In this document: positions 28,748 to 64,000 of the stretch, in pieces
Layout of the letters: every line of letters begins with the position of its first letter
Numbering within the stretch: the stretch's first letter is position 1
Source: Methylococcales bacterium
GTDB lineage: Bacteria; Pseudomonadota; Gammaproteobacteria; JABHGC01
Reading direction: 5' to 3'
DNA: 64,000 bases
Assembly: GCA_018672285.1 (NCBI GenBank)
Contig: JABHGC010000099.1
Coordinates: forward strand, 4,734-68,733
Program-made: the position numbers and the translations under genes
The notes under the pieces: generated by a model
Database searches by the model: none
The model's input: only the letters and a program-made list of their open reading frames with translations
Told to the model about the DNA's origin: nothing

Positions 28748-29728
28748 TTACCGAGAGGCTCTCTCATGTCGCTTTAATAAGTACCGGTATCGTGATTTCT
28801 TTTTTAACTGCGCTATTTTACGTATCGCTTTAGGGTTGCCTAATCTAGCAGACTGCACCAACCAATACGCCGCTTTATCTAAACGCTTACGCTGAAAAAA
28901 TGTCAGTGCTTTTTCAAACTCTTTTTCCCCTGCACCTATTGACGGTACAATAACCGCATTATCATCAGCTATATCATCGGCAGCAACATCATCAGTCTCA
29001 GCAGTTTCGCTTGTGTTTGCGACCAACTGAAAATCGAACGTCGTACTTGCAGCAGTTAATGCAACCCAGTTCTGCTTCATCTGATAACCAGGCGCAGATA
29101 CTTCTATATGATACCGTCCAGGTGTCAACAACATACCTGGCTGATATTTAGGGGCAATATTAAGCACTTTAATTTGAGCACTCGCAGGCACAACCGTCAC
29201 ATTCAATGGCAAAGAGACAGCACCTGCCACTATAGGCGCTGCCTCAGGTGCGCCTGCCAACTGCCTTGCCAGATCAGGCAAACCAACACTAGGCAACAAA
29301 CCCAGCTCAGCCTCTGGCGATACAATTTGACCACTTTTTAGTATTTCACCCGTTGTTGCATCTAACAATTGAGCGGTCACGGTCACCATATTGCCAAACT
29401 TAACCACCGTCCCCGTCACAATGGCCTGAACACCATACAGATCTCCCACCTTATTAGCGCGGGCCTTATCGCTCACATGCTCAGAGCTAGAGAGCACCTG
29501 CTCATCCAACACTTTACGAATTAATATGCGCTCCATCAGCTTAAACTGCTGCGTCGAGCTTAAAGGGTGAATAAAGGTTTGTGCAAGCCCCTTACCCTCT
29601 AGTGCAACCCCGCCACTGACTTCAAAATCAACGACGGCGACGTACATTTTTTCTTCGGCAGAAAAACCAACAACACTATATAGACACAAGCAAAAACCAA
29701 TTAATATTTTATTCATCATCATCGTCAT
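28748..29728 (-). CDS. exported protein with CsgG-like N-terminal domain, PEGA-like domain and Sel1-like C-terminal repeat; translationally coupled to the NRPS gene
   Basis: Signal peptide. YVAVVDFE...G..LAQTF...ERILIRKVLDEQVL...GVQAIVTGTVVKFGNMVTVTAQLLDATTGEIL matches the CsgG/FlgP-type lipoprotein-fold motif pattern. PGRYHIEVSAPGYQ is PEGA-like. KAAYWLVQSARLGNPKA is Sel1-like. The start overlaps the NRPS stop by 13-20 nt. Confidence 0.5.
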   Translation of the reverse strand: MTMMMNKILIGFCLCLYSVVGFSAEEKMYVAVVDFEVSGGVALEGKGLAQTFIHPLSSTQQFKLMERILIRKVLDEQVLSSSEHVSDKARANKVGDLYGVQAIVTGTVVKFGNMVTVTAQLLDATTGEILKSGQIVSPEAELGLLPSVGLPDLARQLAGAPEAAPIVAGAVSLPLNVTVVPASAQIKVLNIAPKYQPGMLLTPGRYHIEVSAPGYQMKQNWVALTAASTTFDFQLVANTSETAETDDVAADDIADDNAVIVPSIGAGEKEFEKALTFFQRKRLDKAAYWLVQSARLGNPKAIRKIAQLKKKSRYRYLLKRHERASR

Positions 29729-53700: not shown

Positions 53701-55955
53701 TATTCGCTTTCGATTTTAAGCGTTATATTACTGATGCAATCTTGTTGATTCAGCGTATTTGTAGCCGCATTTTGGTAAGCGACACAGCCACCAAATTCGG
53801 TGATAGAGTGCGTGAGATACAGATCCACCCCTTCAAGTGACACCTCACCTTTTAACGCAGGAGCCGTCACTACCTTAAGGCTGTTTATTGGGTTTCGAAT
53901 AAGAAACTGAAGTAACGGGATTGACGCATGCACATGCGTCACAGGCCTACTTTTCAGTAATGAAAAACCACACACGACTGAAGCGCCAACAGATAAGGCT
54001 GCCATAACATGGTTCAGCTGGTATTGGTCGGTCAAGCCTGTTAATGCAAAATATTGACTTTCAGGTTCTAATTTAACCCGGTCAATATAACCTGAAACAA
54101 CAACATGATGGTGTAATCCTGATATTTCGAGCAAAGACCATTCATTATTTTTCTGCTCTAATAAGCCGTAACTCACCCACTCTTGAGGCACATCTGGTGC
54201 CTCCCAGTGGCCTGTTAATTCAGAAAATGGAATATCACTCAACTTGACAACATTAAACTCAATATCTGAGTGAAGTGTCTCGCTAATAACGATGGCAGGC
54301 TTGACTGTTAATAACGCTTTTTCTCGATCCGCGTTATCCCACTGAGTATTAACAGGGATAAAACTGACCCCCATTCGCTGCGTTGCGAGTAGCACCTGGT
54401 AAGCATCAATATCAGATGACAGCTCTATGGCTAATTTATCGCCAGATTTAATACCCTGTTGCTGTAAATATTGTGCAATTTGATTGGATCTGACTTGCAA
54501 CCAGTGATAACTATATTCGCCAGAGCCACAGACTACGGCAATCTGCTCAGGCTGTGTTTCTGATATTTTATCGAACAGGTTAATCAGCGATGTTTTGGGA
54601 TGCGGAGCTAACGTTTGTTGTCTTGATAAATAAAGAGGTAACTGATCTAACGCCGTTGTAGGACTTGCTAAGGCACTTTGTAGCAAACATAAAAAATGCT
54701 CAGTAAACTCACTCACTCTAGCCGCTGAAAACAAATCTGCATTGTACTCCCAGCACCCGACCAATCCTTGCTCCGTTTGCTTGATCTCTAACATCAGATA
54801 AAATCGGCTTCGGCCGTAATCAATATCCATAGGCGTCATATCAACGCCACTTAAATGAGGTTGCTCTGTCACTGCATTTTGCAATGAAAACATCGTTTGG
54901 AAGAAAGGAGTGGTTGTGGTGTCTCTCTCAGGACTTAATGCTTGCACTAGCATTTCGAAAGGCACTTGCTGGTGCGTGAAAGCCGCTATGGACTGCTGCT
55001 TGATTTGCGATGCCAAAACATCAAACCCTGCACTGCCTTCCAATTGCCCTCTTATCACAACAGTATTGACAAAAAAACCAATCAAAGGTTCTAGCTCTAC
55101 TCGATCACGATTCGCAACGGGTGTGCCAACAGTAATATCTTGCTGTCCTGTCATTCGGTATAAAAACAAATGATACACCGACATCAGCAAAGCATACTGC
55201 GTTAATTCAGATTCTGAGTCTAAATAATCATAGATTGATGACTCTAGCGTTTTAGGAATGGTAAAAAGCGAATTACCACCGGCAAAAGTTTGTAGTGGTG
55301 CATGTGGAAAATCGGTTACTAATTTGAGTTTTTCGACCCCGGATAATGCATTCTTCCAGAAGGCAATATCGTTTGCCATGGTCTCTAACGTGAAATTGTC
55401 TCTCTGCCACTCTGCATAGTCAATATACTGAATCTCAAGCTCTGGCAAGTCGAGCTCTACGCCTTGTAAGCATGCCTCATAACTTAACAATAATTCCCGC
55501 ATTAACACGGCGACAGATAGCCCATCTGAAATAATATGATGCATTGAAATACAGAGCATATATTCTGCATCGGCTAATGACACAACGGCGACCCTGAGCA
55601 ACATATCAGAGGCTAAATCAAATGGCCTATTACCATGTTCTTTAGCAAACTCAACCAATGTCTGTCCTGTAGCCAGCGTTACTTGCTCAACCTCGAATGG
55701 CTCCTCTTCGCGTAAGAATTGAACAGGCTGCTCATCAACGGTTGTAAAATTCGTCACGAGTGATTCATGCCGGTCGATAATGGCTTGAAATGCTTGTTCT
55801 AATGCGGGGATATTGAGCTGACCGGCCAACTTAAAGGCAGCCGACATGTTATAAACAGACTCACCGGGTGACATTACGTCAAGCAACCACAGCCGCTCTT
55901 GTGAGTAGGATAAAGGGAATTCTTCTAAATCAATTTCGTTGTCATCGTGGTCCAT
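29709..55955 (-). CDS. non-ribosomal peptide synthetase, 7 modules (about 8750 aa). Domain order: C, degenerate A/C remnant, C', A, PCP, C, A, PCP, C, C', A, PCP, C, PCP, C, C', A, PCP, C, A, PCP, C, A, PCP, acidic C-terminal tail. No TE domain.
   Basis: 10 HHxxxDG condensation-type motifs. 6 A domains (core LAYIIYTSGSTGxPKG). 7 PCP cores (FFxLGGHSLL). Likely ATG start at 55955 (MDHDDNEIDLEEFPLSYSQERLWLL), giving a 14-nt overlap with the upstream NRPS gene; the track ORF starts at a TTG at 56042. Confidence 0.9.
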   Translation of the reverse strand: MDHDDNEIDLEEFPLSYSQERLWLLDVMSPGESVYNMSAAFKLAGQLNIPALEQAFQAIIDRHESLVTNFTTVDEQPVQFLREEEPFEVEQVTLATGQTLVEFAKEHGNRPFDLASDMLLRVAVVSLADAEYMLCISMHHIISDGLSVAVLMRELLLSYEACLQGVELDLPELEIQYIDYAEWQRDNFTLETMANDIAFWKNALSGVEKLKLVTDFPHAPLQTFAGGNSLFTIPKTLESSIYDYLDSESELTQYALLMSVYHLFLYRMTGQQDITVGTPVANRDRVELEPLIGFFVNTVVIRGQLEGSAGFDVLASQIKQQSIAAFTHQQVPFEMLVQALSPERDTTTTPFFQTMFSLQNAVTEQPHLSGVDMTPMDIDYGRSRFYLMLEIKQTEQGLVGCWEYNADLFSAARVSEFTEHFLCLLQSALASPTTALDQLPLYLSRQQTLAPHPKTSLINLFDKISETQPEQIAVVCGSGEYSYHWLQVRSNQIAQYLQQQGIKSGDKLAIELSSDIDAYQVLLATQRMGVSFIPVNTQWDNADREKALLTVKPAIVISETLHSDIEFNVVKLSDIPFSELTGHWEAPDVPQEWVSYGLLEQKNNEWSLLEISGLHHHVVVSGYIDRVKLEPESQYFALTGLTDQYQLNHVMAALSVGASVVCGFSLLKSRPVTHVHASIPLLQFLIRNPINSLKVVTAPALKGEVSLEGVDLYLTHSITEFGGCVAYQNAATNTLNQQDCISNITLKIESEYHQEQPISRLGKAVIHFSGNQYRLFDHAQKNCLHDIVTDEILYTLPAQVDSNEFSEASLSVDKALCSRLAEFCHRHELTKDAVLQSLFPLLLTQWQHVESITWTAADLITAQKNYDLALNAFSFVQLYQSDLANNPELQDLIVKPALKGCPLKHDDFHFQSIQGARCDELSHNAKIVMLANTSGNAYELTLKVQLGVISPKNLTALLNALTGLIEYFLDNSSAPVSAIDWLPKADALLLLGLSNETYLSAFAMSPVQHSLFLSAEINPNEISSSIGCAIELPKNIDVARLKYAVQQVSDANDLLRSEVKTLLQGDMKNVYFAVKKQKNTFFEAQTITDDTQLSSLTQAFINQPYILERHPLIRHKLVSTPSKCVLIVAMHHVMMDGFSESLYLNAVMQQYHCSTSDDPEQESVKPFSSFVPELRGQFDQAQAYQFWQKKREDIEPLDFKKLISDSSRIVNQNRLMTVSQNKEIQQYCNENSIPVARFLRGIYVLLLSHYCRAEKDFVVLNINAQRNEDNKAVLGCFFSAEPKYYAAKDFSGDLTCIEYFNHVGYSEAHDKLVRNVTTEFIKDNINTGRSTYIFNFFNFKSSVDIGAEQYPINIFPAHARPGEVHFVPQVRGDSIELMINYDVAVFDDLSFIDRYIHLVHQICHKAEMISDLSYLMPNEEADLQQLRESSAVSQQEIPRLLAPLLQHVKATPDAIALVQGDTQVSYRELDERSNKIANYLLDNGLKTNQPVAIGLSKSVDFSVAQIAILKAGGCYVPIDPSYPENRIEYILDNAEVKFLIHAGIDANIVCQLDLRQAGCLDGFGHEAPHVTIEPEQLAYIIYTSGSTGQPKGVAVTQKSVINLLSWYQKTLSTSATSKTLIISALGFDLTQKNLFVNLWSGGTVVFPESDYYDVDHIVETVERLQISYINCAPSAFYPLVENRANWSALASLKTVVLGGEPIELTAISDWLSHNKSSLINSYGPTECTDIAAYYKITDGVYDKPYPLPIGHANDNVQLFVLDAERKQCVPGVVGELYIAGAGVSQGYLLDAEKTKAQFLTLSIANQEQTTAYKTGDLVVMQEGELVYVGRSDHQIKLRGFRIELGEIESAIKVIPGIKDAIALVKDEQLHAFVTGAGDQVTVKAALKLSLPSYMVPAQLCFLEAFPLTPNGKIDRKALAGESIKSVDVIQTLPSDPMAVSIAEIWQNLLQREVVYLEDDFFLLGGHSLLATKLISRLNTNLNIKVPVSFAFEHTVLSDFVLALPKGGQGQSEANIPVIPRDAALPLSSAQERIWFLHQYTESSTLYNIPVGLKLTGVVDIQALVSAIEYVAEKHEVLRSVIGKVEGQLRQILGRNDKPAIFVHDYSAYDEQRFDVANGKIAEQCLNYHFELSQGPLWLTHIVRGTDSTYLYVCMHHIISDGWSLGVLFSELSDFYNAIVQKVSLPSSPLAIQYVDYAAWQRSGLEAEAVEQQYQYWQKQLNNTPVISLPTDFSRSRDVSVSGKTRLMTLDSNLAKRLNQFSESHKVTPFMLMLSAYMVLLSRYSGQDDICVGTPIAGRHHQLLEPLIGLFVNTLVMRATCAEDDSFIHLLQKIKKISLDAYENQDVPFEQLVDRLSVARDSHHSPLFQVFFSYQNNSDIKFDSAFDQLTVEPVELDVTTAKFEISLIVSQKGSTLECAFEYDDGLFSEQTIHQFSRHYKGVLEQVMNQPTANIQTLNLLTSEDYKQLSSWNATERPVQHSSVITLMQAVIQAAGQSPALEFNGQYLRYDQLEQQSNQLAYYLIAQGIKREDPVVVFLPRSFDLMVVYLGVLKAGGCYVPVDTNTPLERLAYIANDVGTKVVVSHSYLHLEEKIDLDLCLYLDQKLRAISAFPVLSLPPIDGNQLAYIIYTSGSTGQPKGVQIEHHSLINLVEWYQSCYEITSDDQLTSFAGLSFDASVWEIWVGLTSGGCLHLADDNVRHNTELAIQWFNECKITAGFMPTPMLEVALDLPWPDSLSLRVLGVGGDKLHRYVPETLPFELVNLYGPSECAVVSTHSLVTSHGDLGIPDIGQPIRNAKIYILSVHNQLVPAGVVGEICVSGTLVGRGYKNLPQLSESSFIDVDIEGQGVQRLYKTGDLGRFQHNGRIECLGRTDFQVKLRGYRIELGEIQSAILDYSGVKESIVLLNQSKGMPDRLVAYVVGLESPRMVLPDFLKKRLPDYMVPAAFVALDMLPVTANGKIDRSALPEPEAVKLDQVIDLPDTQEEKLLAAIWKDILLVDEVGRGNNFFELGGHSLLVTVLVGRIEATLHLTLSLKTIFDYPVLSALAGHIRKCQQDNQQAVFPDVVSVERTINQPLSYAQQRFWFVEKFAPDTAVYNIPFAFKITSNLTLTVLRQAINDLVRRHEVLRTRIQERNSNTPFQVVSAYDPEEFVVENYAALNDAEFNRKVQDYVAQEVKKPIALTEEKLWRVKLLKHSDDEMVVIFNFHHAIMDGWSVNVLLEDFQIAYHARKAGQAPLFKAKEYDYLDFTVWQRQWLSDEVLQQQLGYWKNHLRNVSNLAMPVDYKAPKDPTFKGGAVTFTLAKETQEKLATFVANVNSTTFMVMLAAYHVLLTRYTKQQDICIGTAVSGRGREKWSSVLGCFVNTLPLRNQSGDNPSFIDFVKRVTQNTLTAFEHQDTPFEKIVDHIGIDRSTTESPLFQTAFSLQSKMMGDIHAELDGQSLEQIEMPVIFAKLNLMLVMVEKDSGLEGIIEYQTDIFSHKTIQDLAANYQAILLSLITAPQQHIHAAHMLDEVQLGHCLQIDFKAYSGIKRLTPVQRDLYIECELDPDTLSSSIGVSFVVNEKLDPSLARDALQWIQDNTEVLRADVIASTEPYLQPAYFAIRHQKTVSLEIETRSEAVSEAQIKALVDDFVYQPYQIIQHSLLKHKLILLEDGRSLFIFAVHHILMDGFSESLYVNYFSRIYNALASNEVPKFDVRNCFEDTQDIRQLYDTEQVYQTWASYGHDCEGFQLGRKKGDTDIRSIQRPLPSALFTDLTAFSQVHRIGIPAILRACYVMLLQHYQRVDHPFVVSDILGERTRKNLRSIGCFYVRLPVVYTAELFTKESVIFDLIKHFYQFKQSVSDTRFISNNLYSQLFDPSDLNFIYNYFNMPSAIDISGQKASIEINAAMPRPGEIHFVPKETPGGLTLHLNYDASVFTEVDFLQRVEQLLATLLTQEAMISEYCFLNAHEAQQVMATFEQSHQPHANTSGSVLAPYLKAATENPEQIAIKQGRDSLSYQALETRTNQLAGELLTQGVKPGQAVAIVLPKGLNFVVSIVTILKVGAHYVPLDQDYPDQRIRYILNDANIAVVMTNTTLSKKLGGALWVDVDADYTHHIDALPIVQVSESDRLYMIYTSGSTGQPKGVAVRHRQALNLLSWYCSEMKITASSSAIIISAMGFDLTQKNIFSLLWQGGTIVFPVSSRYDVDDIVSAISMHSVTLINCAPSAFYAVAEIQRYWSNLASLTTVVLGGERIEYARLQPWLQYQSAELINSYGPTECTDIAAFYRVKSDHGLEQEIPIGKANDNVQLYVLDSNRKLTVPSLQGELYIGGSGLSEGYVFDAVKTAESFVNVSFPDGRVVPLYKTGDLVHYDEDYNLIYDGRTDHQVKLRGLRIELGEIESIARQCDKVTEALAQIRDERIVLYITGNNDVQAVAESMAVDLADYMLPSVIVSLAAFPLTANGKIDRQSLPEPTTQRASKTPASTDIELDIAGLWKNLLSLEQVYLEDHFFDLGGHSLLATQVISYVRKVYQIELPVRLIFDQPTLQTFCQAIATLKGESSSASGLVNIQQREPGSSVPLSFSQERLWFLQKLEPDSTAYHIPVAVTLKGELDIAALQAALSSVVSRHEILRSIVNDQSEDPEWILLGDLELTVETFDISDASEAEQSRLLANYLSELQGQPFNFLRGPLFQCSLIKCHDAKHILYLNMHHIISDGWSMGTLFKELSAFYKSYTQHQPVSIDSMPIQYGDYAVWQRLLEGDDEFQQHYDYWLKYLADPVVLSLPFDHEPEPGVERRGDLYHFTLPDELVVELEKMAKARGVTLYMILMSGYCLLMHRYSSQHDVCVGTPVAGRQWHEVQPLIGFFVNTVVIRSNVAAELSFDQYLMAFKHDLLNAFTHQVIPFEQIVDALNIVRNTMQPPIFQTLFTFQNQSDIDFSDGFSNLDVESYALAHNTAKYDVSITLEKVDSGIAGALEFDVTRFSSTSISAMAEHYIQLLTLAVESPGVLVEKLTLLSVDACQASIEQQKALAIKLSQSGDLNTPVALVPPRDYWETALFEIWQTLLPTQEFGVLDDFFALGGHSLLAIKLITKIDQQMGLSIALKDIFAHTSIEKIARLLQQIKPNEQQIVAIDRANTIPLTFAQERLWLLYQLQPESPAYNIPSAIQLKGPLNRVALQAALNDMLARHEILRAKIVSGVGSAAIEIMPKSSLGINWVSIESPAEDSGSDVDALISEFSLTPFNLEYDDLVRVMCVALSEELHILCVNIHHIIFDGWSNSIFNEELMVLYQSHDSGKGTLLQPVHTQYADFAHWQRGYLQGDVLEEQLAYWVSQLKGIPAVLSLPTDRPRPAVQTTNGRTLSFTIDGEVTNAAKKYASDNQSTLFMLLLGTYQLLLSRYSGQDDIVVGSPIAGRESAQTERMLGYFVNALVFRGQLSGNLTGQQLLQQTREAVVGGFAHQYLPFEALVDAVQPERNLSYPPIAQVGFALQNMPSTNMTLEALSVDSYEITTDTAKYDLILMLHDSPHGDNLVGNIEYNTDLFDQSTIEQFSRHFEYLLGQMVSLPDQALSSYALFPDHQMYLALSLNPEDYEYIVPLTSTQRDLYMHSHVHADTLDNSLGCSFEMRTDIDPDQWAQALQVVTNVHSVLRTDVVPADKPYLDMAYLAVAKTKKVALDYRDLSAMKLSHSEFLNYINAEVYRSFNVSKDALICHYLFKLADEHYVSLLAGHHLSIDGAGGTLHMQQVCQVYQAQSSGETWQPEFVDFTDYVHDQAAVFDLADDLLHWQSKLKDVQPLDFPKPDVTKVEQLCDSVSIGSALWKQFRSACRRHKSTPSLVLKSLYGLLLQQYCRPTNDFVVYEIISGRKKQHNRAIGCYYQQVPVLFQQALMQPSNVLSEYLNHIKQAQKQLGSAQNISVLQQQKLIQHGRIGFLYNYYDFHHIIDFMGQKQRLQHYPPRVPVGQVQLIAKQMSDDLLLECHYHTQDFNSFAAMRRLKSVIEQFVEGVDTIADLSWVTGEENAQLDRWNNTSAIHEPNYSNIIDAIQLQMQNNPDALAVQQGEQCFTYRDIEQQSLSLATRLQRLGITSNQAVAICTSRGADFIVALLATLKAGGYYVPLDPTYPNARLQYIVEDCQAQVLLSQSRLNVLPDYSGIRVDLDKPVKVDVATFSTVATTSNALAYMIYTSGSTGQPKGVGVKHSGIANLLHWYTKTLSIDEADGAIIISALGFDLTQKNLFALLWQGGRLIFPQFDHYDVDDIANTMSKYRPTLLNCAPSAFYPLCELPSQYGALSSLKSICLGGEPIERSKIKDYCTQSSVTVFNSYGPTECTDIAAFYELKSKDLKGGHSIPIGRPNDNVSLLVLNSQLQSVPIGITGELYISGAGVSLGYINDAEKTQKVFIKNPTTGQEMYQTGDLVYYRADGQLVFVGRVDSQVKLRGLRIEIGEIEFAIRGYDAKLHPFVMVVDDVLVAYLVGSFDQALLSESIATFLPDYMVPTRFVSLQEFPLTPNGKIDKKALPTPDLQQLSYVAPSSTLEKQLCQYWSELLAISKVGVEDNFFALGGHSLSATQLISWIRKQYAVELPLADIFQQPTVKRLAENIVQLEAGQTNDIQVRDESMSARAPLSFAQERMWFIQNLIPESTQYNIASAVTIKGGLNVTAIQIAITTISQRHEVLRTRFPDEQGIAVQVIDPEARVTVEQFDIGCYDIERQSDEVRLRIQQDQNTVFNLAEGPLFKCTVLQLTDNHHVLMLTIHHIIADGWSSQVMLKELMAVYLAEQESRAVRLPHLSVQYADYAIWQRDYEQSEKYGADLGYWQSQLQGVDPLVLPVDYTRPSVQTFAGAHLQFSIPALTMQGLKRLANDSGATEFMVLMTVYHVLLSRLSGQQDFAVGVPTAGRSQAEIEPLIGAFINSLAIRNALLPEMPFSSALEQVKKTVLSAFLHDKISFEKIVEAVSEGRDLTHAPIYQTFFTLQNLANDSLVIEGLEIEPFEMVSTTAKFDLSLVTWFADDGCLECVFEYNTDLFSADSIARFGQYFKHILEQVVVDESLEIGRLTLLSESDRTTILHDWNQAHSHSSSNQNDSIVSRFQQSAQQFPERIALQQQQRSMNYQQVDVMSNQLAYYLIEQGIGVESIVGVYIHRSMMMLVCQLAIMKSGAAYLPIDPAYPEDRVNYMLNDSGAQFVFTETALTMQDVEGVVRFDVDNDLTVIEPFSQEALCVATSLNDLAYVIYTSGSTGKPKGVQIEQRSLSHFLAWAIREFAITEADKVSQVAGVAFDAAIIDSWPFLAQGACVCLVNDIDRMDPERMQQWLLEHGVTVSFLPTSLTERVLDLDWPAQTKLRYVLTGGDLLHRYPKEGLPFALYNLYGPTEVTILVTAGEVPCRTENRLPSIGKPIDNAEIYILDSNMQPQPMGVAGDLYLTGAGLFRGYINQPELTQAVLIDNPIAGSQYDKLYKTGDLARFRGDGQVEFMGRSDQQVKLRGYRIELGEIEAVLAEYEAISESVVLVHQDEHGIDRLVAYVTWVSGSVGVADEIKAHCQQVLPDYMVPQVIQQIDLVPLTANGKVDRKALPDPQVSSWDTMQFVPPESSDEILLADCWREVLKVDKISIYDDFFAIGGHSLLAAQLAARIRESFEIEFPLQKVFEFSTLENMARCLAELRMNESSVVLPAVEVAPSRENLPLTFAQERLWFLEKFSPGLVAYHIPGFFRLKGSIDLDAINRAYNALLLRHESLRTVFSTVDEKAVQSIMPPEPVSIEVVDLSAYLGEVLVAKTEQTAFDEVSIPFDLELGLPVRLKLIKQSPDHYVLVLTLHHIISDGWSMGVFLSEFAHFYRAFSQDTPPTLPVLDIQYPDYAYWQRRWLSGDVLQAQMDFWHDQLQGIEALELPLDRSRPAVQTYQGALHHFEWEHELVERLHSLSKEQGVTLFMVLISAYSVLLQRYSGQDDFCIGTPVAGRTHKSFEHLIGYFVNTLPIRANLTDDPSFVEVIQALKKTTLDAFSHQVVPLERIVEQLKLPRDTSRTPLFQTLFTLQNLPLTEETIELPELVIEPVSVEAAVAKFELSLTMTEVDGRLKGIVEFNTDLFDAETIEQMMDNFQLLLSATLDNPSAQVKSVALVDAAAVSRLCQFGQGPVIDRSSDGTLLSCFTEYAQSHDNEVVVQCGERQWTYAQLDARAEHIASILEEEVIAGSMVALCMPRQSDLVASMLTVIKLGCAYVPIDPSYPADRITYMLQDSEVNLVISTSDVSLPERVSCNTLLVDSLVFNTRKRLKKTRKVTAADPAYMIYTSGSTGLPKGVVVPHGAVMNHMLWMQNRFEFSGSDTLLQKTPYSFDASIWEFWAPLLSGIKMVLAKPEGHKDTDYMIGEIKRHNVSVLQVVPSLLKMLLLSPEIVDCTSLRLIFCGGEALTQDVVKDVAILLPEARVVNLYGPTEASIDSTFYIASDEHEDVGVPIGVPIDNAAVYVLDEGLNFVPEGVSGELHIAGSGLALGYFKRETLTNERFIVADIQGIPTRLYKTGDLVRWSKEGILHYIGRADNQVKLRGYRIELGEVEAKIQALPEVQDVVAMASKQRLVAYVVCSGEFDEQAMKRALRGELPDFMVPTVWMHQQALPLSPSGKVDRHRLPEPVVVSDIPYVAPETPTEILLAVMWAELLSVEQVGIHDVFFDLGGHSLLATQLAAKIMAECDVELPLRQIFETPTIADLAKAIDAIEPQQLTVIGKVARESVVFEDEDSADLGEDDIDLQLAELDGMSDEEMDAMLNNLMDDDDDE
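37968..39260 (-). other. C' domain 3 (HHLSIDGAGG), after C7 and before A4
   Basis: aa ~5595-6025. Starts TSTQRDLYMHS. Contains RAIGCYYQQVPVLF and FLYNYYDF. Confidence 0.5.
40653..40880 (-). other. carrier protein (PCP) of an A-less module (C6-PCP, followed directly by C7)
   Basis: aa ~5055-5130. DDFFALGGHSLLAIKL verified on the DNA at 40746-40793. No adenylation motifs lie between C6 (HH at aa 4721) and this PCP. Confidence 0.75.
44073..45380 (-). other. C' domain 2 (HHILMDGFSESLY), directly after a complete C domain and before A3
   Basis: aa ~3555-3990. Starts TPVQRDLY. Contains RSIGCFYVRLPVVY and NFIYNYFNM. Confidence 0.5.
51678..52970 (-). other. C' domain 1: condensation-superfamily domain with E-like motifs (HHVMMDGFSESLY), between C1 and A1
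   Basis: aa ~1025-1455. Starts SPVQHSLF. Contains AVLGCFFSAEPKYY and YIFNFFNF, which resemble E-domain motifs E5 and E7. Confidence 0.5.
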
Positions 55956-58900
55956 TTGATTTTTTTCGACGCCTTGTTTTTTTAGTAAGGGGTTTGATAT
56001 CTGCAATTTTTTGACTATCAGCGACTTTGTCGGCCAAGTCAATGGCTTTTGAAAGACCTTCTAAAGTCGGCTCATCAAAAAATACCTGCAAAGGTATTTT
56101 GCACGAAAATTGGCTCAATATTCTAGAAAGTACTTGTGTCACTAACAATGAGTGCCCGCCAAGCTCAAAAAAGCTATCACCGCGATTAACTTTGTCGATA
56201 CTGAGTACTTCACACCAAATTTTCGCCAGTGCTTTTTCTGTATCCGTTTCAGCTTCACCACTGATTTTTTCAGTAGAGTCAATATGTTCTGGCGCAGGCA
56301 GTGCTGCACGATCGACCTTTCCACTATCGAGTAAAGGTAATCCATCTAAGTGAACGAACGATTTAGGTACTAAGAATTCAGGGAAGTAGCCATTGAGGTA
56401 ACGCCTTAAGTGACCCATTGTATGAGTAGATAACCAATAATGTTCAGATTGCATAACACTAAGCACACTCTGATAAAACCGTACCTGTGTTTCTTTATCG
56501 ATATTTAATTGAACACTGGCGAAGGTATTATTGACCCACAATAACTTGCCCTCAACCCAGCTTGAAACAGACTCACCTGGAAGTGCGATCAGCAATGATA
56601 TCAAGTCATCTTGACGACACTCTTTAGGTACATTTTTAAGTCGAATATACCCCACGGACAAATCTTCGGTATCCACTTTATACAAATGCCCCGAAGACAT
56701 TAATTTGAGCTGGCACTGTTGATGCAACGGTACCCTGAGACGTGAGCGTCTTGGGTCTGAGACATTCAATCTTCTCAAGTCAAATAAATTAAAGCCATGA
56801 TCAGCAATGATACCTGAAATCATATCACTGACCTGACCGACATCTTCACTTAACTCTAACAAAATGCCAGCAGATCCGGACTGGCACCACACCATTTTAC
56901 CGGTAATTTTTCCGACCTGAGGGAAGTTTTCTAACTCGAGGCTGACTCTCTGCCCTTTTTGCCAGTAACTTGGCACGTTCATTAACTTCAAGCCACGCTT
57001 TGAGATATCTTCAGTGGTCACGGTAACAGGGTCATGCCCTTCTACTCTTGCTGTACAACTAATTTTAAACAGCACTCTATCAGCAACAATGCTCGACACC
57101 AAATAGGCTACTAACCCCATTTGCCCTTTCTCATCTTTCCTAGCCACCACCACACTTTCATGTACGGCAGGATGCTCATTCAATACCGCTTCAATCTCTT
57201 CTAACTCTACCCGGTAACCTCTAATTTTAATTTGTAAATCAGAACGACCTACGTATTCAAGTTCCCCTGTTGCTAACCATCGAACCAAATCTCCTGTCTG
57301 ATACAATCGGCTTTGTTTGCTACTAGAAAACGGATTATGAATAAACCTAGCCTGAGTCATTTCCATTTGATTCAAGTAGCCCGAAGACAAACCTTCACCC
57401 GCGATGAACAATTCGCCAACAACACCTGTCGGTACAACATTCAAGTGCTGATCAAGCACATACACCTGGTTATTATTAATCGGCTGACCAATGGGCACAG
57501 ACTCACCTATGTGGTGCTTATCCGCAACACCAAAAGTCGCATCGATTGTCGCTTCAGCAGGCCCGTACAAATTAATTAATTGGCAGGATAAACGGCTGAA
57601 AAATTGTTGTGCCAACTCTTGAGGGAAAACTTCACCACCACAAAAAACGGTTCGCAATGAGGTACATTCTGAGAATTGTGGTTGCGCGACTAATTCGCGC
57701 AATAAGGTCGGTACAACTTGCAACAAAGTAATCTGCTGGCTCAATATCAACTCAATTAAGCGTTTTGCATCACCCACTTCATTTAAGGTCGTTACTTGGT
57801 TTTCAACTTGATTGGGTGCTGGCAGCGCGGCATAATCAATTTTACCATTCGCAGTGAGCGGCACAACATCAATTGAGACAAACGAAGACGGAATCATATA
57901 TTCAGGAATTCTCAGCTTAATAAATTGCCGAATATCCACAAACTCTATGTTGGTCGGTTTAACGATGTAACACACAATTTGTGGCTCACCGTGGCGATCA
58001 TCTTTAACAATGGTAATATTTTCTTTAACACCTGGGAATGCTGCAATGGCGGACTCAACCTCACCAAGCTCAATACGATAACCCCGTAGCTGCACTTGAT
58101 GGTCCATTCGGCCTAAATACTGCACTTCTCCGCTAGGTAGATACCGAGCCAAATCACCAGAGCGATATAACTTACCTGGAATACCCGGAAGTTGAACAAA
58201 GCGGCTTGCCGTCAACCCAGCCCGATTATGATAACCGCGCGCAACACCCTCACCAGACACACAAATTTCACCCGGTACACCCACTGCTACCGGCCTATTT
58301 TGGGCATCTAAAATATGAAGTTTCAACCCATTAATGGGTTGGCCTATAAAGTTCAAGGTGCTCATGGTTCTCAGGGCGAAATCAACATCTTCCTGTGTCA
58401 CCGGCCTGCAGGTCACATGTACAGTCGTTTCCGTAATACCATACATATTCGAAAGCTTAGGCTGGCTATCACCGTGGCGCATAACCCAAGGCTTGAGCTT
58501 TCTATAGTCTAAAACTTCGCCGCCAAAGATGACTTCTCTAAGTACCAGTGCATTTTCATCATTATCTGCCGACCTGAACAACTGCTCTTCTGCAGAGATC
58601 AACTGATAAAATTCTGATGGGGTTTGGTTAAGAATGGTCACTTTTTCTTTCACGAGCAACTGATAAAATGCTTCCGCATCTTGACTGCAGCTATCTGGCA
58701 CCAGCACCAAACGGCCGCCATACATTAATGCCCCCCAGGCTTCCCACACTGAAAAATCAAAAGCACAAGAGTGGAACATAGCCCACACATCATTGTGATC
58801 AAAATCAAATAATGGTGCTGACTGATCCATCAGACTTAAAATTTGAGCATGTTCTACCATCACACCTTTAGGCTTACCTGTTGATCCAGAAGTATAAATC

Positions 58901-61900
58901 ACATAAGCCAAACGACTGCTTGAGATACTAATATTAACCGACGTATTTGGCTGTGAAATAACACTCTTATCTTGTGTTTCAAGTATTTCAATATCCTGGC
59001 TCGCAATACCTTTAATCGTTTTAACATGTCTTGGTTGAGTAATGACGAGGGGTATTTCAGTATCTTCAAGAATCCACTCAACCATATCTTCCGGTGCAGT
59101 AGGGTCAAGCGGTACATAACAACCACCTGCTTTGAGTACGGCCAGCATAGCAATCACTTGGTCTACAGAACGGTCTATAAACAAGCCAACATATGTTTCC
59201 TGTTCAACGCCCATTGCCAATAAACAATGCGCCATTTGATTGGATCGGTGCTCAAGCTCTGCATAGGTAAGTTGCACATCGTCATATCCCACAGCAACTT
59301 GCAGTGGGTAGGCCTCAACCATCGCCTCAAATCTTTGCACCAAAGACCCTGACACAGGCTCACTGTCAACCTTGTTATCAGGCTCAATGACTGAGCGCTC
59401 AACAGGTAACGACAGCATCCCTAAGGTGACAGGACTTTCAACAATTTGTACGAGCAGTTGCTGCAGCTGATTAAAAAAACCAAAATCGGTAAAGTGATGA
59501 GAATGGTAAGTCAGTGTTAACCTTAAGTCAGACCCCACCTGCTCACTTGACAACCATACAGAGGACTCTTCATTCTGGTTGATCATTCCGTGATCGGTAT
59601 AATAAAATGCGGTTTTTCCTGTGGTGACAGGCTGATCTAAACAAATGCCACACAACAGTGGTAGCTGCTCATAAATCGTCCGACAACGGTTTAAACGTGC
59701 CCACAACTCCTGACAGGTTGCGACCTCATGAAATAGCTCAGGTGAAAAAACATACAACACTTGATTATCCGCATTCTGAACGGGGAAATACCCTTCAGGT
59801 CGACAATATTGATATACCCACCAAGCTTGCAGCCCAATCAAACATTCAAAAATTTTCATCGAATGGCTGTCACAATACTGCTGAAGTTTTTGGTGCAAAT
59901 CTGGACTCAACGTAAACTGCTCTGTTTTCCAGGCACCGGTATCTTCAACCATAACCGGGTAATTAAGTGCTTCTATTTGGTCATAATCACGTTTCCACTC
60001 TGCGATAATGCCACCCAGGTAACACAAGGTTGGGTTATAAAATGCGGCATTCATTTCTAAAACAAGTTCACCACCACTTAATAGCGGTAGCCAAAATTCT
60101 GTGACAGATGCATCAAAGCTCATTGGTGAGCGCTGCAACATCCGATCAGATTCGCTCAACTCAAATTCTCTCTGCATCCACTGCATGTGGTTATATGCCG
60201 CTTTATGAGGAACCACAACCCCCTTCATCGCACCGGTACTACCAGAGGTATAAATCTGATACATCGGATCGTTGGTTGACACACCACTGATTAAATTTTT
60301 TGTGCTGAGCGTTAAGACATCTTCCCAGCCTTCATCCACTAAAAACAGCTGCATTTGTGAACGTTTAAACTGGCGCCCACGGATAGAATCGGTCATCAAC
60401 ATTAAGGGTTTAGCATCTTGCAGCATCTGCTCAATACGGTCTTTCGGACAGCTTGCGTCAAACGGAATATAACACCCCCCAGACTTAGCCACCGCTAGCA
60501 TAGATATAACCAGCTCTATTGAGCGTGGCAAATGAATACCAACACTAATATTTGGACCAACATTTTGCATCCGTAGCCAATGCGCGAGTTGATTGGCCTT
60601 TTCATTTAATTCTCTATAAGTCAGTTTTTCATGGCCTAATGTGACGGCTATCGCATCCGGCGTATATTCAGCTTGATCCTCAAACAACTGGTGCACACAG
60701 ACACGCTCAGGAAAATCAACTTGGGTATCATTCCATTCATTCACCAAACGGTTTTTCTCAGACTCTGGCAATAAAGAAATTTTGGCAATGGGTGTTTCTG
60801 GTTGGCGAATAATGTTATTTAACAAGACTTGAAGCTGACTTAAAATACGCTCAATGGTTGCCTCTTCAAACAGATCGGTATTGTATTCCATTTGAGCGAT
60901 CATGCCTTCTTGCGACTCACTCAAACTTAACCACAAATCAAATTTTGCAGTGCCATTGTGACTATGAAATAACTCGGCATCGACATCTGGTAGTGAGAAA
61001 GCTTCAAGCGGGGTGTTTTGCATGGTGAACATCACTTGAAACAAGGGTGATCGACTGGTGTCACGCTGCGGGTCTAATTCATCGACTAGTCTCTCATATG
61101 GCACATCTTGATTTGAAAATGCACCAAAAAAGACGTCACGAACTCGCCTCACTTGTTCTTGAAAATCAATATCATCATCTAGCGTTGTCTTAATCGCCAA
61201 CGTATTCACAAACAAACCAATCAAGTGCTCAACTTCAACTCGAGTACGGTTCGCAATCGGGAAACCGACCATGATTTCACGTTGACCTGAATACCGATAA
61301 AGCAGCACATTAAACGCGGCAAACAAGGTCATGCCTAAGCTAGCGCCATTGCGCTCACTTAGCTCTTCTAAACCAACAATCAACTCAAATGGAATCAGCC
61401 TTAAACACTGCGCCCCTTGGTAACTTTGCACCAATGGCCGAGGATAGTCTGTTGGTAAATTAAGCACGGGTACATCACCATGCGCCCCGATTTGGTCACG
61501 CCAAAACTCAATTTGTTTGGCCAACACCTCATCGGTTAAAAATGTGTTTTGCCATGCAGAGTAATCAATATACTGAATAGGTAACGCACTCAATCGAACA
61601 GATTTCCCACCAATAAACGCTTTATAAGCGGTCAAAAACTCTGAGCAAAACAAACCGAGTGACCAACCATCTGAGACGATATGATGCATGGTAAATAAAA
61701 ATAAATAATCATCTTCATCCAACACCAACAACTTAGCTCGAATCAAAGGTGGTGCTGTTAAATCAAACCCCTCCGTTCCCTCTTCATCCGCTAAACGCTT
61801 CGCCTCAGCTTGACGCACTTCAGCTGTATCACCTTCTACTTCAATCACAGTAAAAGGCACTTCATCTACCTCTGCAACAAAAGCGACCGGCTCTCCTAAC

Positions 61901-64000
61901 TGGTCTAAATACCCTGTTTTTAAGACTTCATGATGATTTAAAATCGTATTTAAGCTGAATTTCAAAGCATCAATATTGACCTTACCCTTCATCGAAATGG
62001 CAGCAGGCATGTTATAAACGGATGTGTTTTCTAACAAATGATGTAAAAACCACAAACGTTTTTGCGCCGATGACACCGGTAAAAATTCGCTTCTAGTGAT
62101 TACTTTAATATCGGTTTTTGGCAAACTCTTCTGATGCCGATAATGTTTTTCAATATGGCGAGACAAATCAGCAATGGTTGGGTGTTCAAATAACGCCCGC
62201 ACAGGCACTTCTAGTGCAAACCGATCATAAATACGAGCAACCACTTGAGTTGCTAATAATGAGTGCCCACCAAATTCGAAAAAGTTATCTTCAACACCGA
62301 CTCGGATGGCACCCAATACTTGCCCCCAAATCTCAACCAACGCTAATTCTAGCGGTGTTCCAGGTGCAATATACGCATCATCCATTTGCATGCCTGATGG
62401 TGCAGGCAATGCCAAACGATCAACCTTACCATTTGGCATCAATGGCAGGGCATCTAAAATCACAATGTCGTTAGGAATCATGTAAATTGGTAAATAGTTC
62501 TTCAGGAAGACTTTCATCTCCTCTGTCGTTGGTGAATTAACCGGATCAGAGATCACATAGGTCACCAAGCGCTTATTTCCTGGTACATCCTCTCGTACCA
62601 ATGTCACACTCTGTCTTACAGCGGGGTGATCATTAATCGCCGCTTCAACCTCACCCATTTCAATACGATAACCCCGTAACTTGACCTGGTGATCGATTCG
62701 ACCTAAAAATTCGATAGAGCCATCATGCAAATACCGCCCTAAGTCACCACTCTTATAAAGCTTTTGATCAGCCTCAAAAGGGTTGCTAATAAAACTGTCA
62801 TCGGTTAATTCAGGTCGGTACAAGTAACCACTTGCCAAACCTTGACCTGAAATATGAATTTCACCTGGCACACCAACCGGCACAGGGTTTAAAGACTTAT
62901 CTAAGATATAAATCTTGGCATTTGAAATGGGTCTACCAATGGGTAAATTATTTTGCAAATAACGTGGGTCGCACTCCCAAAACGTACTATCAATTGTCGC
63001 TTCTGTTGGCCCATAAAGATTAAATAAGGGTACGTCCAATCTTTCATAGTGCTGTTTTTGCAAATCAAGCGTCAGCGCCTCACCACCACAACAAACCCGT
63101 TTTAAACTACTGATACTTTCAATGCCAATTGTCTCAAGCAGCATTCTTAAAGCAGAAGGTACCAATTGAATGGTCGTCACATTATATTGTTTAATCGCCT
63201 CTAATAAATACGCACCATCTCGGTGACCATCAGGCTTGGCCATCACTAAAGTACCGCCAACCATGAGAGGCGCAAAAAATTCCCAAATAGAGGCGTCAAA
63301 ACTAAAGGGGGTTTTTTGTAACACCACATCATTTGAATCAAAGTTCAGGGCATCCAGCATCCACAACATGTGATTAACAATCGCACGATGAGGAATCATG
63401 ACCCCTTTTGGCCGACCTGTTGAACCTGAAGTGTAAATAATATAAGCCAATTGCTCAGGATCAAAAGCCATATCAATATTGGCTTTGTCAAATTCAGCCA
63501 AATCTAGCGTATCGATGGGTATCATCGTGCTTTTATTACGCTGAGGCATCGCATCGCATAATTGACTGTTGGTTAACACTAACGACAATTTTGCGTCTTC
63601 ACACATATAGGTTAACCGTTCAACAGGATAACCCGGGTCTAACGGAACGTAAGCCCCACCCGCTTTTAAAACCGCTAAAATGGCCACAACCATATCAATT
63701 GAGCGATGCACACAAACTCCAACCAAGAGGTTGTCTGCAACATTATTACTTTGTAAATATCGTGCTAATTGGTTCGCACGTTCGTTCAGTGCCTGATAAG
63801 TGATAGACGCTTGTTCATAACGAACAGCAATACTCTCTGGGCTAGATTCTGCAAATGACTCGAACCAGCTATTCAGTGAGCGCTCTAAAGGGTAATCAAC
63901 ATAATGATCATTCCACTCGACCGTTAACAAGTAACGATCAGCTTCAGTCATTAAAGGAATATCACTCATTGGGCTATCAGACTCACTGAGCAACCCTTGT
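55942..64000 (-). CDS. non-ribosomal peptide synthetase, 5'-truncated by the window edge (at least 2683 aa). Domain order: [C] linker, A, PCP, C, A N-half, C-tail fragment, full A, A C-half containing a PilZ-like insert, PCP, basic C-terminal tail.
   Basis: The frame stays open to position 64000. The first residues (LMTEADRYLLTVEWND) are a C-to-A linker, so a C domain lies upstream of the window. The track start at 63993 is a TTG. Confidence 0.9.
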   Translation of the reverse strand, partial: QGLLSESDSPMSDIPLMTEADRYLLTVEWNDHYVDYPLERSLNSWFESFAESSPESIAVRYEQASITYQALNERANQLARYLQSNNVADNLLVGVCVHRSIDMVVAILAVLKAGGAYVPLDPGYPVERLTYMCEDAKLSLVLTNSQLCDAMPQRNKSTMIPIDTLDLAEFDKANIDMAFDPEQLAYIIYTSGSTGRPKGVMIPHRAIVNHMLWMLDALNFDSNDVVLQKTPFSFDASIWEFFAPLMVGGTLVMAKPDGHRDGAYLLEAIKQYNVTTIQLVPSALRMLLETIGIESISSLKRVCCGGEALTLDLQKQHYERLDVPLFNLYGPTEATIDSTFWECDPRYLQNNLPIGRPISNAKIYILDKSLNPVPVGVPGEIHISGQGLASGYLYRPELTDDSFISNPFEADQKLYKSGDLGRYLHDGSIEFLGRIDHQVKLRGYRIEMGEVEAAINDHPAVRQSVTLVREDVPGNKRLVTYVISDPVNSPTTEEMKVFLKNYLPIYMIPNDIVILDALPLMPNGKVDRLALPAPSGMQMDDAYIAPGTPLELALVEIWGQVLGAIRVGVEDNFFEFGGHSLLATQVVARIYDRFALEVPVRALFEHPTIADLSRHIEKHYRHQKSLPKTDIKVITRSEFLPVSSAQKRLWFLHHLLENTSVYNMPAAISMKGKVNIDALKFSLNTILNHHEVLKTGYLDQLGEPVAFVAEVDEVPFTVIEVEGDTAEVRQAEAKRLADEEGTEGFDLTAPPLIRAKLLVLDEDDYLFLFTMHHIVSDGWSLGLFCSEFLTAYKAFIGGKSVRLSALPIQYIDYSAWQNTFLTDEVLAKQIEFWRDQIGAHGDVPVLNLPTDYPRPLVQSYQGAQCLRLIPFELIVGLEELSERNGASLGMTLFAAFNVLLYRYSGQREIMVGFPIANRTRVEVEHLIGLFVNTLAIKTTLDDDIDFQEQVRRVRDVFFGAFSNQDVPYERLVDELDPQRDTSRSPLFQVMFTMQNTPLEAFSLPDVDAELFHSHNGTAKFDLWLSLSESQEGMIAQMEYNTDLFEEATIERILSQLQVLLNNIIRQPETPIAKISLLPESEKNRLVNEWNDTQVDFPERVCVHQLFEDQAEYTPDAIAVTLGHEKLTYRELNEKANQLAHWLRMQNVGPNISVGIHLPRSIELVISMLAVAKSGGCYIPFDASCPKDRIEQMLQDAKPLMLMTDSIRGRQFKRSQMQLFLVDEGWEDVLTLSTKNLISGVSTNDPMYQIYTSGSTGAMKGVVVPHKAAYNHMQWMQREFELSESDRMLQRSPMSFDASVTEFWLPLLSGGELVLEMNAAFYNPTLCYLGGIIAEWKRDYDQIEALNYPVMVEDTGAWKTEQFTLSPDLHQKLQQYCDSHSMKIFECLIGLQAWWVYQYCRPEGYFPVQNADNQVLYVFSPELFHEVATCQELWARLNRCRTIYEQLPLLCGICLDQPVTTGKTAFYYTDHGMINQNEESSVWLSSEQVGSDLRLTLTYHSHHFTDFGFFNQLQQLLVQIVESPVTLGMLSLPVERSVIEPDNKVDSEPVSGSLVQRFEAMVEAYPLQVAVGYDDVQLTYAELEHRSNQMAHCLLAMGVEQETYVGLFIDRSVDQVIAMLAVLKAGGCYVPLDPTAPEDMVEWILEDTEIPLVITQPRHVKTIKGIASQDIEILETQDKSVISQPNTSVNISISSSRLAYVIYTSGSTGKPKGVMVEHAQILSLMDQSAPLFDFDHNDVWAMFHSCAFDFSVWEAWGALMYGGRLVLVPDSCSQDAEAFYQLLVKEKVTILNQTPSEFYQLISAEEQLFRSADNDENALVLREVIFGGEVLDYRKLKPWVMRHGDSQPKLSNMYGITETTVHVTCRPVTQEDVDFALRTMSTLNFIGQPINGLKLHILDAQNRPVAVGVPGEICVSGEGVARGYHNRAGLTASRFVQLPGIPGKLYRSGDLARYLPSGEVQYLGRMDHQVQLRGYRIELGEVESAIAAFPGVKENITIVKDDRHGEPQIVCYIVKPTNIEFVDIRQFIKLRIPEYMIPSSFVSIDVVPLTANGKIDYAALPAPNQVENQVTTLNEVGDAKRLIELILSQQITLLQVVPTLLRELVAQPQFSECTSLRTVFCGGEVFPQELAQQFFSRLSCQLINLYGPAEATIDATFGVADKHHIGESVPIGQPINNNQVYVLDQHLNVVPTGVVGELFIAGEGLSSGYLNQMEMTQARFIHNPFSSSKQSRLYQTGDLVRWLATGELEYVGRSDLQIKIRGYRVELEEIEAVLNEHPAVHESVVVARKDEKGQMGLVAYLVSSIVADRVLFKISCTARVEGHDPVTVTTEDISKRGLKLMNVPSYWQKGQRVSLELENFPQVGKITGKMVWCQSGSAGILLELSEDVGQVSDMISGIIADHGFNLFDLRRLNVSDPRRSRLRVPLHQQCQLKLMSSGHLYKVDTEDLSVGYIRLKNVPKECRQDDLISLLIALPGESVSSWVEGKLLWVNNTFASVQLNIDKETQVRFYQSVLSVMQSEHYWLSTHTMGHLRRYLNGYFPEFLVPKSFVHLDGLPLLDSGKVDRAALPAPEHIDSTEKISGEAETDTEKALAKIWCEVLSIDKVNRGDSFFELGGHSLLVTQVLSRILSQFSCKIPLQVFFDEPTLEGLSKAIDLADKVADSQKIADIKPLTKKTRRRKKSNGPR
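56449..57096 (-). other. 216-aa YcgR-like insert (degenerate PilZ-N-like domain plus canonical PilZ domain) within an adenylation domain, between motifs A8 and A9
   Basis: aa ~2300-2515. PRRSRLRVPL-(23 aa)-DLSVGYIRL...VEGKLLWVNNTFASVQL matches RxxxR...DxSxG...GxVxW PilZ hallmarks. The preceding half reads DISKRGLKLMNVPSYWQKGQRVSLEL...VGKITGKMVWCQSGSAGILL. It is flanked by A8 (GRSDLQIKIRGYRVELEEIE) and A9/A10 (FPEFLVP...DSGKVDRAAL). Confidence 0.55.
57820..59331 (-). other. complete adenylation domain of a different subfamily (A5 motif NMYGITETTVHVT), nested inside a split A domain
   Basis: aa ~1555-2058 with motifs A1 to A10. No PCP follows it. The sequence runs straight into the C-terminal half (A5-A10) of another A domain. 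Confidence 0.7.
59404..60696 (-). other. N-terminal half of the split A domain (motifs A1-A4, YTSGSTGAMKG...FDAS) fused to a ~170-aa fragment of the C-terminal end of a condensation domain
   Basis: aa ~1100-1312 carry A1-A4 and diverge after GGELVLE. aa ~1360-1530 resemble C-domain motifs C4-C7 and the domain end (LHQKLQQYCDSHSMKIFECLIGLQAWWVYQYCRPEGYF ... LRLTLTYHSHHFTDFGFFNQLQQLLVQIVESP). Confidence 0.55.

Follow-up and report, generated by a model that had tools for sequence, protein, structure and literature searches.

A nested 'A-in-A' adenylation domain in a nonribosomal peptide synthetase from a Methylococcales metagenomic contig

Layout of the nested module

We describe an adenylation (A) domain that is interrupted twice, once by a second and complete A domain, in a nonribosomal peptide synthetase (NRPS) encoded on contig JABHGC010000099.1 of a Methylococcales bacterium, within a stretch of 64,000 nucleotides (nt) hereafter called the window. 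The right half of the window is taken up by two huge minus-strand open reading frames (ORFs): pA (55942-63993), whose product of 2683 amino acids (aa) is truncated N-terminally where the window ends, and, downstream, pB (29709-56042), of 8777 aa when read from the first TTG. Amino acid positions given below are those of the pA product unless pB is named. pA and pB, the latter taken from its listed start, share ~100 nt at their boundary (55942-56042); a gene caller gave a pB product of 8748 aa, and the true pB start is probably 29 codons downstream of the first TTG.

In Pfam searches, pA showed four AMP-binding stretches, one Condensation and two PP-binding domains and also, which had not been expected, PilZ. 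Local phmmer and hidden Markov model (HMM) searches with the window's own domains supplied the domain coordinates. A single stop-free ORF encodes a condensation (C) domain, motifs a1-a4 of a split host A domain (A2), a remnant of ~230 aa (X), a complete guest A domain (A3), motifs a5-a8 of A2, two PilZ repeats, motifs a9-a10 of A2 and a carrier (T, or peptidyl carrier protein, PCP) domain, as follows.

60745..62088, minus strand: C domain of the nested module (aa 636-1083; Pfam PF00668, 375.9 bits; HHIVSDG intact)
60055..60684, minus strand: N-terminal part of A2, a1-a4 (aa 1104-1313; HMM positions 1-214 (1-209/214), E 3.6e-88)
59362..60054, minus strand: X, remnant of the C-terminal subdomain of a C' domain, described below (aa 1314-1544)
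57814..59361, minus strand: A3, a1-a10 with its own C-terminal subdomain (aa 1545-2060; HMM positions 1-481 at aa 1555-2051, E 1.9e-200)
57778..57813, minus strand: 12 residues of the inserted cassette's former A-T linker (NQVENQVTTLNE), leading from A3 back into the host, read directly
57070..57777, minus strand: middle part of A2, a5-a8 (aa 2073-2308; HMM positions 215-450, E 4.2e-105)
56425..57069, minus strand: two PilZ-type repeats between a8 and a9 of A2 (aa 2309-2523; Pfam PF07238)
56317..56424, minus strand: a9-a10 of A2 (aa 2524-2559; HMM positions 446-481; a10 lysine in SGKVDR)
56038..56244, minus strand: T/PCP domain of the nested module (aa 2584-2652; GGHSL present)

Several independent comparisons identify the pieces of A2 as one domain. 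The ten motifs a1-a10 occur in order across three segments that correspond to HMM positions 1-214, 215-450 and 446-481, and when the window's nine A domains are aligned with MAFFT the pieces meet in the a4-a5 surface loop, after the GGxLVL strand, and only ~3-6 residues of the loop are missing; in their place stands an insert of 759 aa (aa 1314-2072, nt 57778-60054). The N-terminal piece is 43% identical to pB_A6 and 41% to pA_A1, and the C-terminal piece 47% and 45%, respectively, against 30-40% in other A-domain comparisons. Among 122 external synthetases retrieved for comparison (labelled P0001 onwards), both pieces find their best matches in adjacent parts of the same uninterrupted domains (195-403 and 411-637 of P0019; 1075-1283 and 1291-1514 of P0074). 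Joined in silico, they align without a break to solved A domains over 1-485 (1AMU, E 1e-96; LgrA, E 1e-181). The E-values of the two halves, 1e-35 to 1e-105, leave no room for chance.

The specificity code reads coherently across the breaks. Codes were extracted by alignment to GrsA, which, as a control, returned its known code DAWTIAAICK. A2 yields DATQFGLIDK, which is Gln-like (9/10): the N-terminal piece contributes residues 235, 236 and 239 (D, A, T), the middle piece residues 278-331 (Q, F, G, L, I, D) and the a10 piece the lysine. The corresponding codes of pB_A6 and pA_A1 are DAWQFGLIDK and DAWQCGLIDK, the former being a published Gln code (PMC8313283).

The guest domain is complete in its own right. 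A3 scores 417.2 bits with TIGR01733 (curated cutoff 317.4), contains the a3 P-loop YTSGSTGKPKG and the a10 lysine in NGKIDY, and is modelled by AlphaFold 2 with a pLDDT of 80-95; its nearest external relatives are ~50% identical. Its code, DFWNIGMVHK, corresponds at 10/10 positions to one assigned to Thr (PMC12283262). A3 is accordingly named here a predicted Thr-activating domain, and the different subfamily to which the initial annotation had assigned it is the Thr clade.

Integrity was measured over the 75 alignment columns in which 237 external A domains show conservation of 90% or more. Five of these columns deviate in A2 and five in A3, compared with 2-6 in each of the window's seven remaining A domains and with an external mean of 2.3 (standard deviation 2.3). 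By this measure neither A2 nor A3 has decayed, and both retain all ten core motifs and coherent predicted codes.

We are highly confident that the module holds a genuine 'A-in-A' adenylation domain with two interruptions, and its architecture is well supported. An initial annotation of this DNA had proposed the order C, A N-terminal half, C-tail fragment, complete A, A C-terminal half and PCP, all of which is borne out within the one stop-free ORF. The motifs it quoted were all recovered: YTSGSTGAMKG, NHMQWM and ATIDATF in A2, NHMLWM and ATIDSTF in A1 of pA, NHMLWM and ASIDSTF in pB_A6, and NMYGITETTVHVT in A3. It had assigned the halves to the subfamily of pA_A1 and pB_A6 and taken them for two halves of one A domain; the identities, the loop gap, the shared external best matches, the joined alignment to 1AMU and the code all agree with this, and alignment of the A-domain halves, a check that it had suggested, places both halves in one subfamily rather than two. 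Its dimensions needed revision. The C-tail fragment measures ~230 aa rather than ~170 aa and the insert 759 aa rather than 740 aa, while the feature, which it had ended at 57820, runs on to the end of T at nt 56038. What it had described as a single C-terminal half does contain a5-a10, but is interrupted again at a8-a9 by the PilZ pair of ~215 aa, which that annotation lacked.

The condensation remnant and the origin of the insert

X has no match in Pfam or NCBIfam, including to PF00668, and was placed by comparison within the cluster. A blastp search against the window's proteins aligned X 20-215 with pB 1216-1442 (E 2e-8) and X 17-215 with pB 5791-6020 (E 9e-7), in both cases the C-terminal half of an unusual condensation-like domain that we name C'. 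With hhalign, X 15-231 aligns to positions 185-432 of the 446 in C' with a probability of 98.3% (E 1.6e-14), compared with 6% against ordinary C domains. X opens at the 'fW' motif that starts the C-terminal subdomain, is without the half that carries HHxxxDG and has lost ~15 residues around the C5-like segment. Judged from these alignments, X is the C-terminal subdomain of the divergent C' family without its catalytic half, in keeping with the C-tail fragment of the initial annotation; it probably acts as a linker or scaffold and takes no part in catalysis.

An AlphaFold model of X together with A3, built from a 12-row alignment (pLDDT 73), is confident in A3 and patchy in X. In Foldseek comparisons it superposes on C-A didomains over ~800 columns (McyB 8HLK, Txo2 6P1J, SrfA-C 2VSQ and EntF 5JA2; TM-score normalised to the query, TMq, 0.67-0.75) and on A-only structures over ~510 columns (TMq about 0.5); the alignment behind the model held rows of C-terminal halves, so that the superposition is supportive rather than independent.

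The C' domain occurs three times in pB, each time between an ordinary C and an A domain (C-C'-A-T) and each time preceding the A domain, with HHxxxDG retained:

51627-52949, minus strand: C' domain (pB aa 1032-1472)
44028-45365, minus strand: C' domain (pB aa 3560-4005)
37893-39230, minus strand: C' domain (pB aa 5605-6050)

The A domains that follow C' in pB share the a4 motif FDLTQKN and have the code DLKNVGSDIK or DLKNCGSDIK. Against Pfam the C' domains give a weak generic Condensation match, and against NCBIfam matches below the cutoff to whole-synthetase models. C' is also found in P0121 (5942 aa, with the same C-C'-A layout) and in P0122, and these were the two weak matches returned by a HMMER search with X over 1.84 billion representatives; both fall in C' domains, the best being the C-terminal half of the C' of P0121. 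No match to X was returned by a word-indexed search of 5.8 billion proteins or by scans of metagenome and genome contigs, in which the source contig itself was not recovered either. X is 15-22% identical to the C' domains, which are 18-32% identical among themselves; dating the insertion by relative rates was given up because they are too divergent from each other.

The cassette inserted into A2 consists of the C-terminal subdomain of a C' domain, the Thr-type A domain that follows it and the first 12 residues of the A-T linker of the latter. Each of the three breakpoints falls within a linker or a loop: on its left the cassette ends at the boundary between the two C subdomains, and on its right in an A-T linker. 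The linker from X to A3 resembles a normal C-A linker, and in the host the native C-A2 junction and the junction of the A2 subdomain with T are intact.

Both joins connect non-homologous positions, an A loop with the middle of a C' domain on one side and an A-T linker with the same A loop on the other. The reading frame is kept across both, and the host resumes ~3-6 residues from where it stopped. The initial annotation had allowed that the region might be a collapsed or expanded repeat, and no repeats occur at the junctions: the longest within 55900-64000 are 48-59 nt at 75-76% identity, and lie in conserved T and a5 motifs away from the joins. Repeat-mediated misassembly was rejected because joins between non-homologous positions cannot arise in that way. 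Two other candidates also failed. A 7-nt sequence, AAATGAA, stands at both junctions, but as a target-site duplication it would have to collapse to one copy, which breaks the host frame, and shared 7-mers are expected by chance; an intein or mobile element is not in question either, since the insert has no splicing-type boundary residues and holds NRPS domains only.

The GC content at third codon positions (GC3) and the synonymous codon usage of X and A3 fall inside the distribution of random pB chunks. Recent acquisition of the insert from elsewhere is rejected on this ground, and the 'foreign' A domain of the initial annotation is so only in belonging to a different subfamily, its codon usage and GC3 being native. 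We suggest that illegitimate recombination among the NRPS genes of this same genome brought in the cassette, which would have survived because its breakpoints fall in linkers and loops, leaving the native C-A2 and A2 subdomain-T junctions undamaged.

A second scar of this general kind lies in module 1 of pB:

52950..54572, minus strand: dead A domain (pB aa 491-~745) and C'-type C-terminal fragment (pB aa 827-1031), followed by a full C'-A-T

The A remnant corresponds to A positions 1-258 (hhalign 97.7%); a1-a2 are recognisable, the a3 P-loop is deleted and FDxS is lost. The C'-type fragment aligns over 51 residues with C' positions 207-257 (hhalign 75%). The initial annotation had regarded this as a degenerate repeat of the same unit, and an A remnant followed by a C'-type fragment is indeed present, but the breakpoints differ, the A domain is dead and its closest relatives are pB_A1 and pB_A3 rather than A2; the scar is analogous to the unit in A2 rather than demonstrably identical with it.

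Relatives of the whole module could not be found. A protein search with it returned only ordinary multi-A synthetases at ~33-40% query coverage, none with the nested order, and none of the 122 external synthetases resumes an interrupted A domain after an inserted one; the collections searched hold no ortholog of the nested module.

Assignment of adenylation domains to carrier domains

With two A domains beside a single T, the initial annotation had left it open which of them loads the carrier, and an A-less module downstream, which it did not mention, bears on this. The seven modules of pB read C-(dead A)-(C' fragment)-C'-A-T (module 1), C-A-T (2), C-C'-A-T (3), C-T (4), C-C'-A-T (5), C-A-T (6) and C-A-T (7). 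The first module of pA and the A-less module of pB, for which the A-domain HMM gave no match, are located as follows:

aa 44-523, minus strand: A1 of pA (local phmmer/HMM)
aa 546-620, minus strand: T domain of the first pA module (local phmmer/HMM)
40653..42278, minus strand: A-less C-T module 4 of pB (C, pB aa 4589-5026; T, pB aa 5064-5130; Pfam Condensation and PP-binding only, with 38 aa between them)

The visible assembly line thus counts nine T domains and nine intact A domains, with one module having two A domains per T and one having none. We propose that A2 folds around its insert as other interrupted A domains do and would charge the tethered cis T, the probable substrate being Gln or something closely similar. 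A3 lacks its own T; it would act as a built-in stand-alone Thr-activating enzyme and most likely charges the orphan T of pB module 4 in trans, competition for the cis T being less likely; we favour loading in trans because there is exactly one A-less C-T module and the counts of intact A and T domains are equal. The integrity of A2 and A3 is meaningful here because this cluster lets useless A pieces decay in frame, as the remnant in pB module 1 illustrates. Taken as a whole, a genuine A-in-A domain that arose by recombination, with A2 serving the cis T and A3 the orphan T in trans, is the reading that we favour, and we hold its chances to be evenly balanced.

Several observations weigh against this proposal. 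The match of nine to nine is limited to the part of the assembly line within the window, pA being cut at its N-terminus, and pB_A3 lies directly upstream of the A-less module and could load both T domains. A2 is unusual at conserved positions in a3 (AMKG, not xPKG), a5 (GPAE) and a10 (SGK), and the intact motifs of A2 and A3 may just reflect a recent event. The module is known from a single metagenomic contig, with no ortholog in the collections searched in which purifying selection might show.

The unusual residues in a3, a5 and a10 of A2, together with the perfect 10/10 Thr code of A3, would suit a recombination scar with one working A domain, in which either A3 loads the module's T with Thr and A2 is a scaffold, or A2 is the active domain and A3 is carried along idle. 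The C-A and A subdomain-T junctions kept here are just those that natural NRPS recombination preserves (PMC8097286), and left-over A pieces have a precedent in the pseudo-A subdomain (mentioned in PMC8341866). However, in the conserved columns A2 deviates no more than do A3 and the remaining A domains, it assembles a 9/10 Gln code from three separate segments in a cluster where useless A pieces decay, and A3 is untethered to T; we regard such a scar as unlikely. That both A domains charge the same cis T, giving built-in product microheterogeneity of a Gln-like residue or Thr while pB_A3 serves the A-less module, is more doubtful. Two intact A domains do stand beside one T, pB_A3 is immediately upstream of the A-less module, and HMWP2 is known to have one A domain loading several T domains (PMC7539972), but the downstream C domain would have to tolerate both residues, and the match of nine A to nine T would be left as a coincidence.

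The further scar in pB module 1, the A-less module and the want of relatives in which conservation might be seen would also fit a module, or whole cluster, that is functionally dead, its assembly line broken by a recent insertion and stop codons not yet accumulated. This is quite improbable: 2683 and 8777 codons remain in open frame, C, A2, A3 and T have kept all their catalytic motifs intact, the native codon usage of the insert speaks against a very recent foreign acquisition, and the breakpoints fall precisely in loops and linkers. Finally, the nested order could be an assembly or sequencing chimera absent from the organism, given that it comes from one contig of one metagenome and that NRPS genes are repeat-rich and prone to misassembly. 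With no shared repeat at either junction, joins between non-homologous positions, an unbroken frame and a host that picks up again within ~3-6 residues, we consider this extremely unlikely.

Genomic setting and relation to known systems

The second interruption of A2 has its own distribution. The PilZ pair scores 48.4 bits with PF07238, repeat 1 reaching 31.4 and repeat 2 21.3, just under the cutoff of 22.5. By eye, each repeat has one canonical and one deviant version of the cyclic di-GMP (c-di-GMP) motifs RxxxR and (D/N)xSxxG: DRVLFK (RxxxK) and DISKRG in repeat 1, RRSRLR and DLSVGY in repeat 2. Among the retrieved matches, three other metagenomic synthetases (P0016, P0062 and P0086) carry PilZ at the same a8-a9 position. 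In P0016 (aa 1636-2452) the PilZ-interrupted A domain is followed by a repeat of a short unit made of A positions 404-445, PilZ and A positions 449-480, that is, by a duplicated A subdomain-PilZ. The PilZ insert alone gave no match as a query in the collections searched, and the literature searched holds no description of PilZ inside an NRPS or as an A-domain insert.

PilZ within an A domain may reflect c-di-GMP control of an NRPS. A far-reaching version would make the nested module a two-A device under second-messenger control, in which c-di-GMP-bound tandem PilZ at the a8-a9 hinge restrains the C-terminal subdomain of A2 and so decides whether A2 (Gln-like) or A3 (Thr) charges the cis carrier, or else frees A3 for the orphan carrier, the peptide then depending on the c-di-GMP state. 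We note beside it that the cluster adjoins flagellar and chemotaxis genes, and consider this switch very improbable.

The DNA corresponds to a 65,965-bp contig from a single JGI metagenome (sample 3300072015). The genes around the cluster are chromosomal in character: four flagellins, FlaG, FliD, a CheV-like protein, a NAD kinase and a PLD-family protein, as well as a CsgG-like lipoprotein and a 1343-aa multi-glycosyltransferase. The four tandem flagellin genes (283-287 aa), FlaG and FliD lie on the minus strand at 20125-24099 and 18105-19448, ~0.2-8 kb from the multi-glycosyltransferase gene (24286-28317), and the CsgG-like lipoprotein gene (28748-29728) overlaps the 3' end of pB. The host is a poorly sampled, uncultured gammaproteobacterium, because in a search of 185,579 species genomes no protein exceeded 58% identity to the CheV-like protein, which has its best matches in gammaproteobacterial metagenome-assembled genomes (MAGs; the closest, at 58%, is MAG PPR_0564), Methylophaga and Amphritea. 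Elsewhere in the window, a plus-strand ORF of 1460 aa (5848-10230) is without a Pfam match; its first 451 codons encode an N-terminal hydrophobic segment followed, by eye, by acidic Glu/Gln/Leu-rich sequence suggestive of a coiled coil, and its DNA shows an AT skew of 0.37-0.38 and a GC content raised to 0.44-0.49 relative to its surroundings.

Known interrupted A domains carry methyltransferase (M), oxidase or monooxygenase (Ox/MOx) or ketoreductase (KR) inserts at a2-a3, a6-a7 or a8-a9 (PMC8341866, PMC11355689). MtaG has the layout C-A-MOX-A-T-TE (PMC11411415), PchE has an inserted E domain (PMC8807600), and A domains split by foreign M or MOx inserts stay active (PMC11355689, PMC11411415). 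A2 resembles these systems (A-M-A in TioS, TioN and KtzH, A-MOx-A in MtaG and MelG, the Ox and KR inserts, and the E domain of PchE) in that its ten motifs stay in order and are split by a folded unit in an inter-motif loop, and its PilZ insert uses the classical a8-a9 site. The A-in-A insert, unlike those at the sites described in PMC8341866 (a2-a3, a6-a7 and a8-a9), lies at a4-a5. Also unlike in interrupted A domains, one insert is a complete second A domain with a C' remnant and the other a pair of PilZ repeats, neither of them a tailoring domain. The MOx domain of MtaG presumably sits at a4-a5. We class the layout as a variant of the interrupted A domains in which an A insert plus condensation remnant is new; the literature searched offered no description of an A domain, with a condensation remnant, inside an A domain.

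Other systems share single aspects of the arrangement. KR-containing depsipeptide modules (A-KR-pseudoAsub-T; PMC8341866) likewise retain left-over A pieces beside T, but the flanking pieces of A2, unlike a pseudo-A subdomain, make up a full A domain with a motif set and code. A-less C-PCP modules are served in trans in the WS9326A, yersiniabactin and syringomycin systems, and in WS9326A the Thr-specific trans A domain Cal22 supplies the residue at such a module (PMC7539972). As in WS9326A (Cal22Thr/Cal23Asn), HMWP2/yersiniabactin and syringomycin, we find a C-T module that lacks an A domain alongside an A domain that lacks its own T; unlike a trans A domain of the WS9326A type, the candidate here is not a separate protein but part of the upstream synthetase, where it sits inside a loop of A2.

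In-frame illegitimate joins inside A domains persist in other synthetases too, such as P0028 (A positions 1-303, then a full A) and P0017, P0025 and P0027 (C-A(1-368)-C-A-T), but unlike in these remnants A2 resumes after the inserted A domain. Engineered XUC units split C domains between their subdomains. Natural NRPS recombination spares the C-A linker and the A subdomain-T interface (Baunach et al. 2021, PMC8097286), and as in natural A-core or C-A exchange units (PMC8097286) the native C-A linker and A subdomain-T interface of the recipient are preserved here. Unlike in such exchanges, the donor segment was added and the recipient A core was not replaced.

If the architecture holds true, no earlier module is known in which two A domains are folded one into the other, and this one would represent an 'added, not exchanged' intermediate of A-domain recombination, of a kind only inferred so far by comparative studies. 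If both domains are active, the a4-a5 loop tolerates an insert of 759 residues with a whole second A domain, far beyond the known inserts of methyltransferase size, and would offer NRPS engineers a natural insertion site at which the C-A and A subdomain-T interfaces are left untouched. The occurrence of PilZ at the A-domain hinge in at least three other metagenomic synthetases is a lead to possible direct c-di-GMP control of a synthetase, and the nested A domain may be a natural way of supplying an A-less module without a separate gene.

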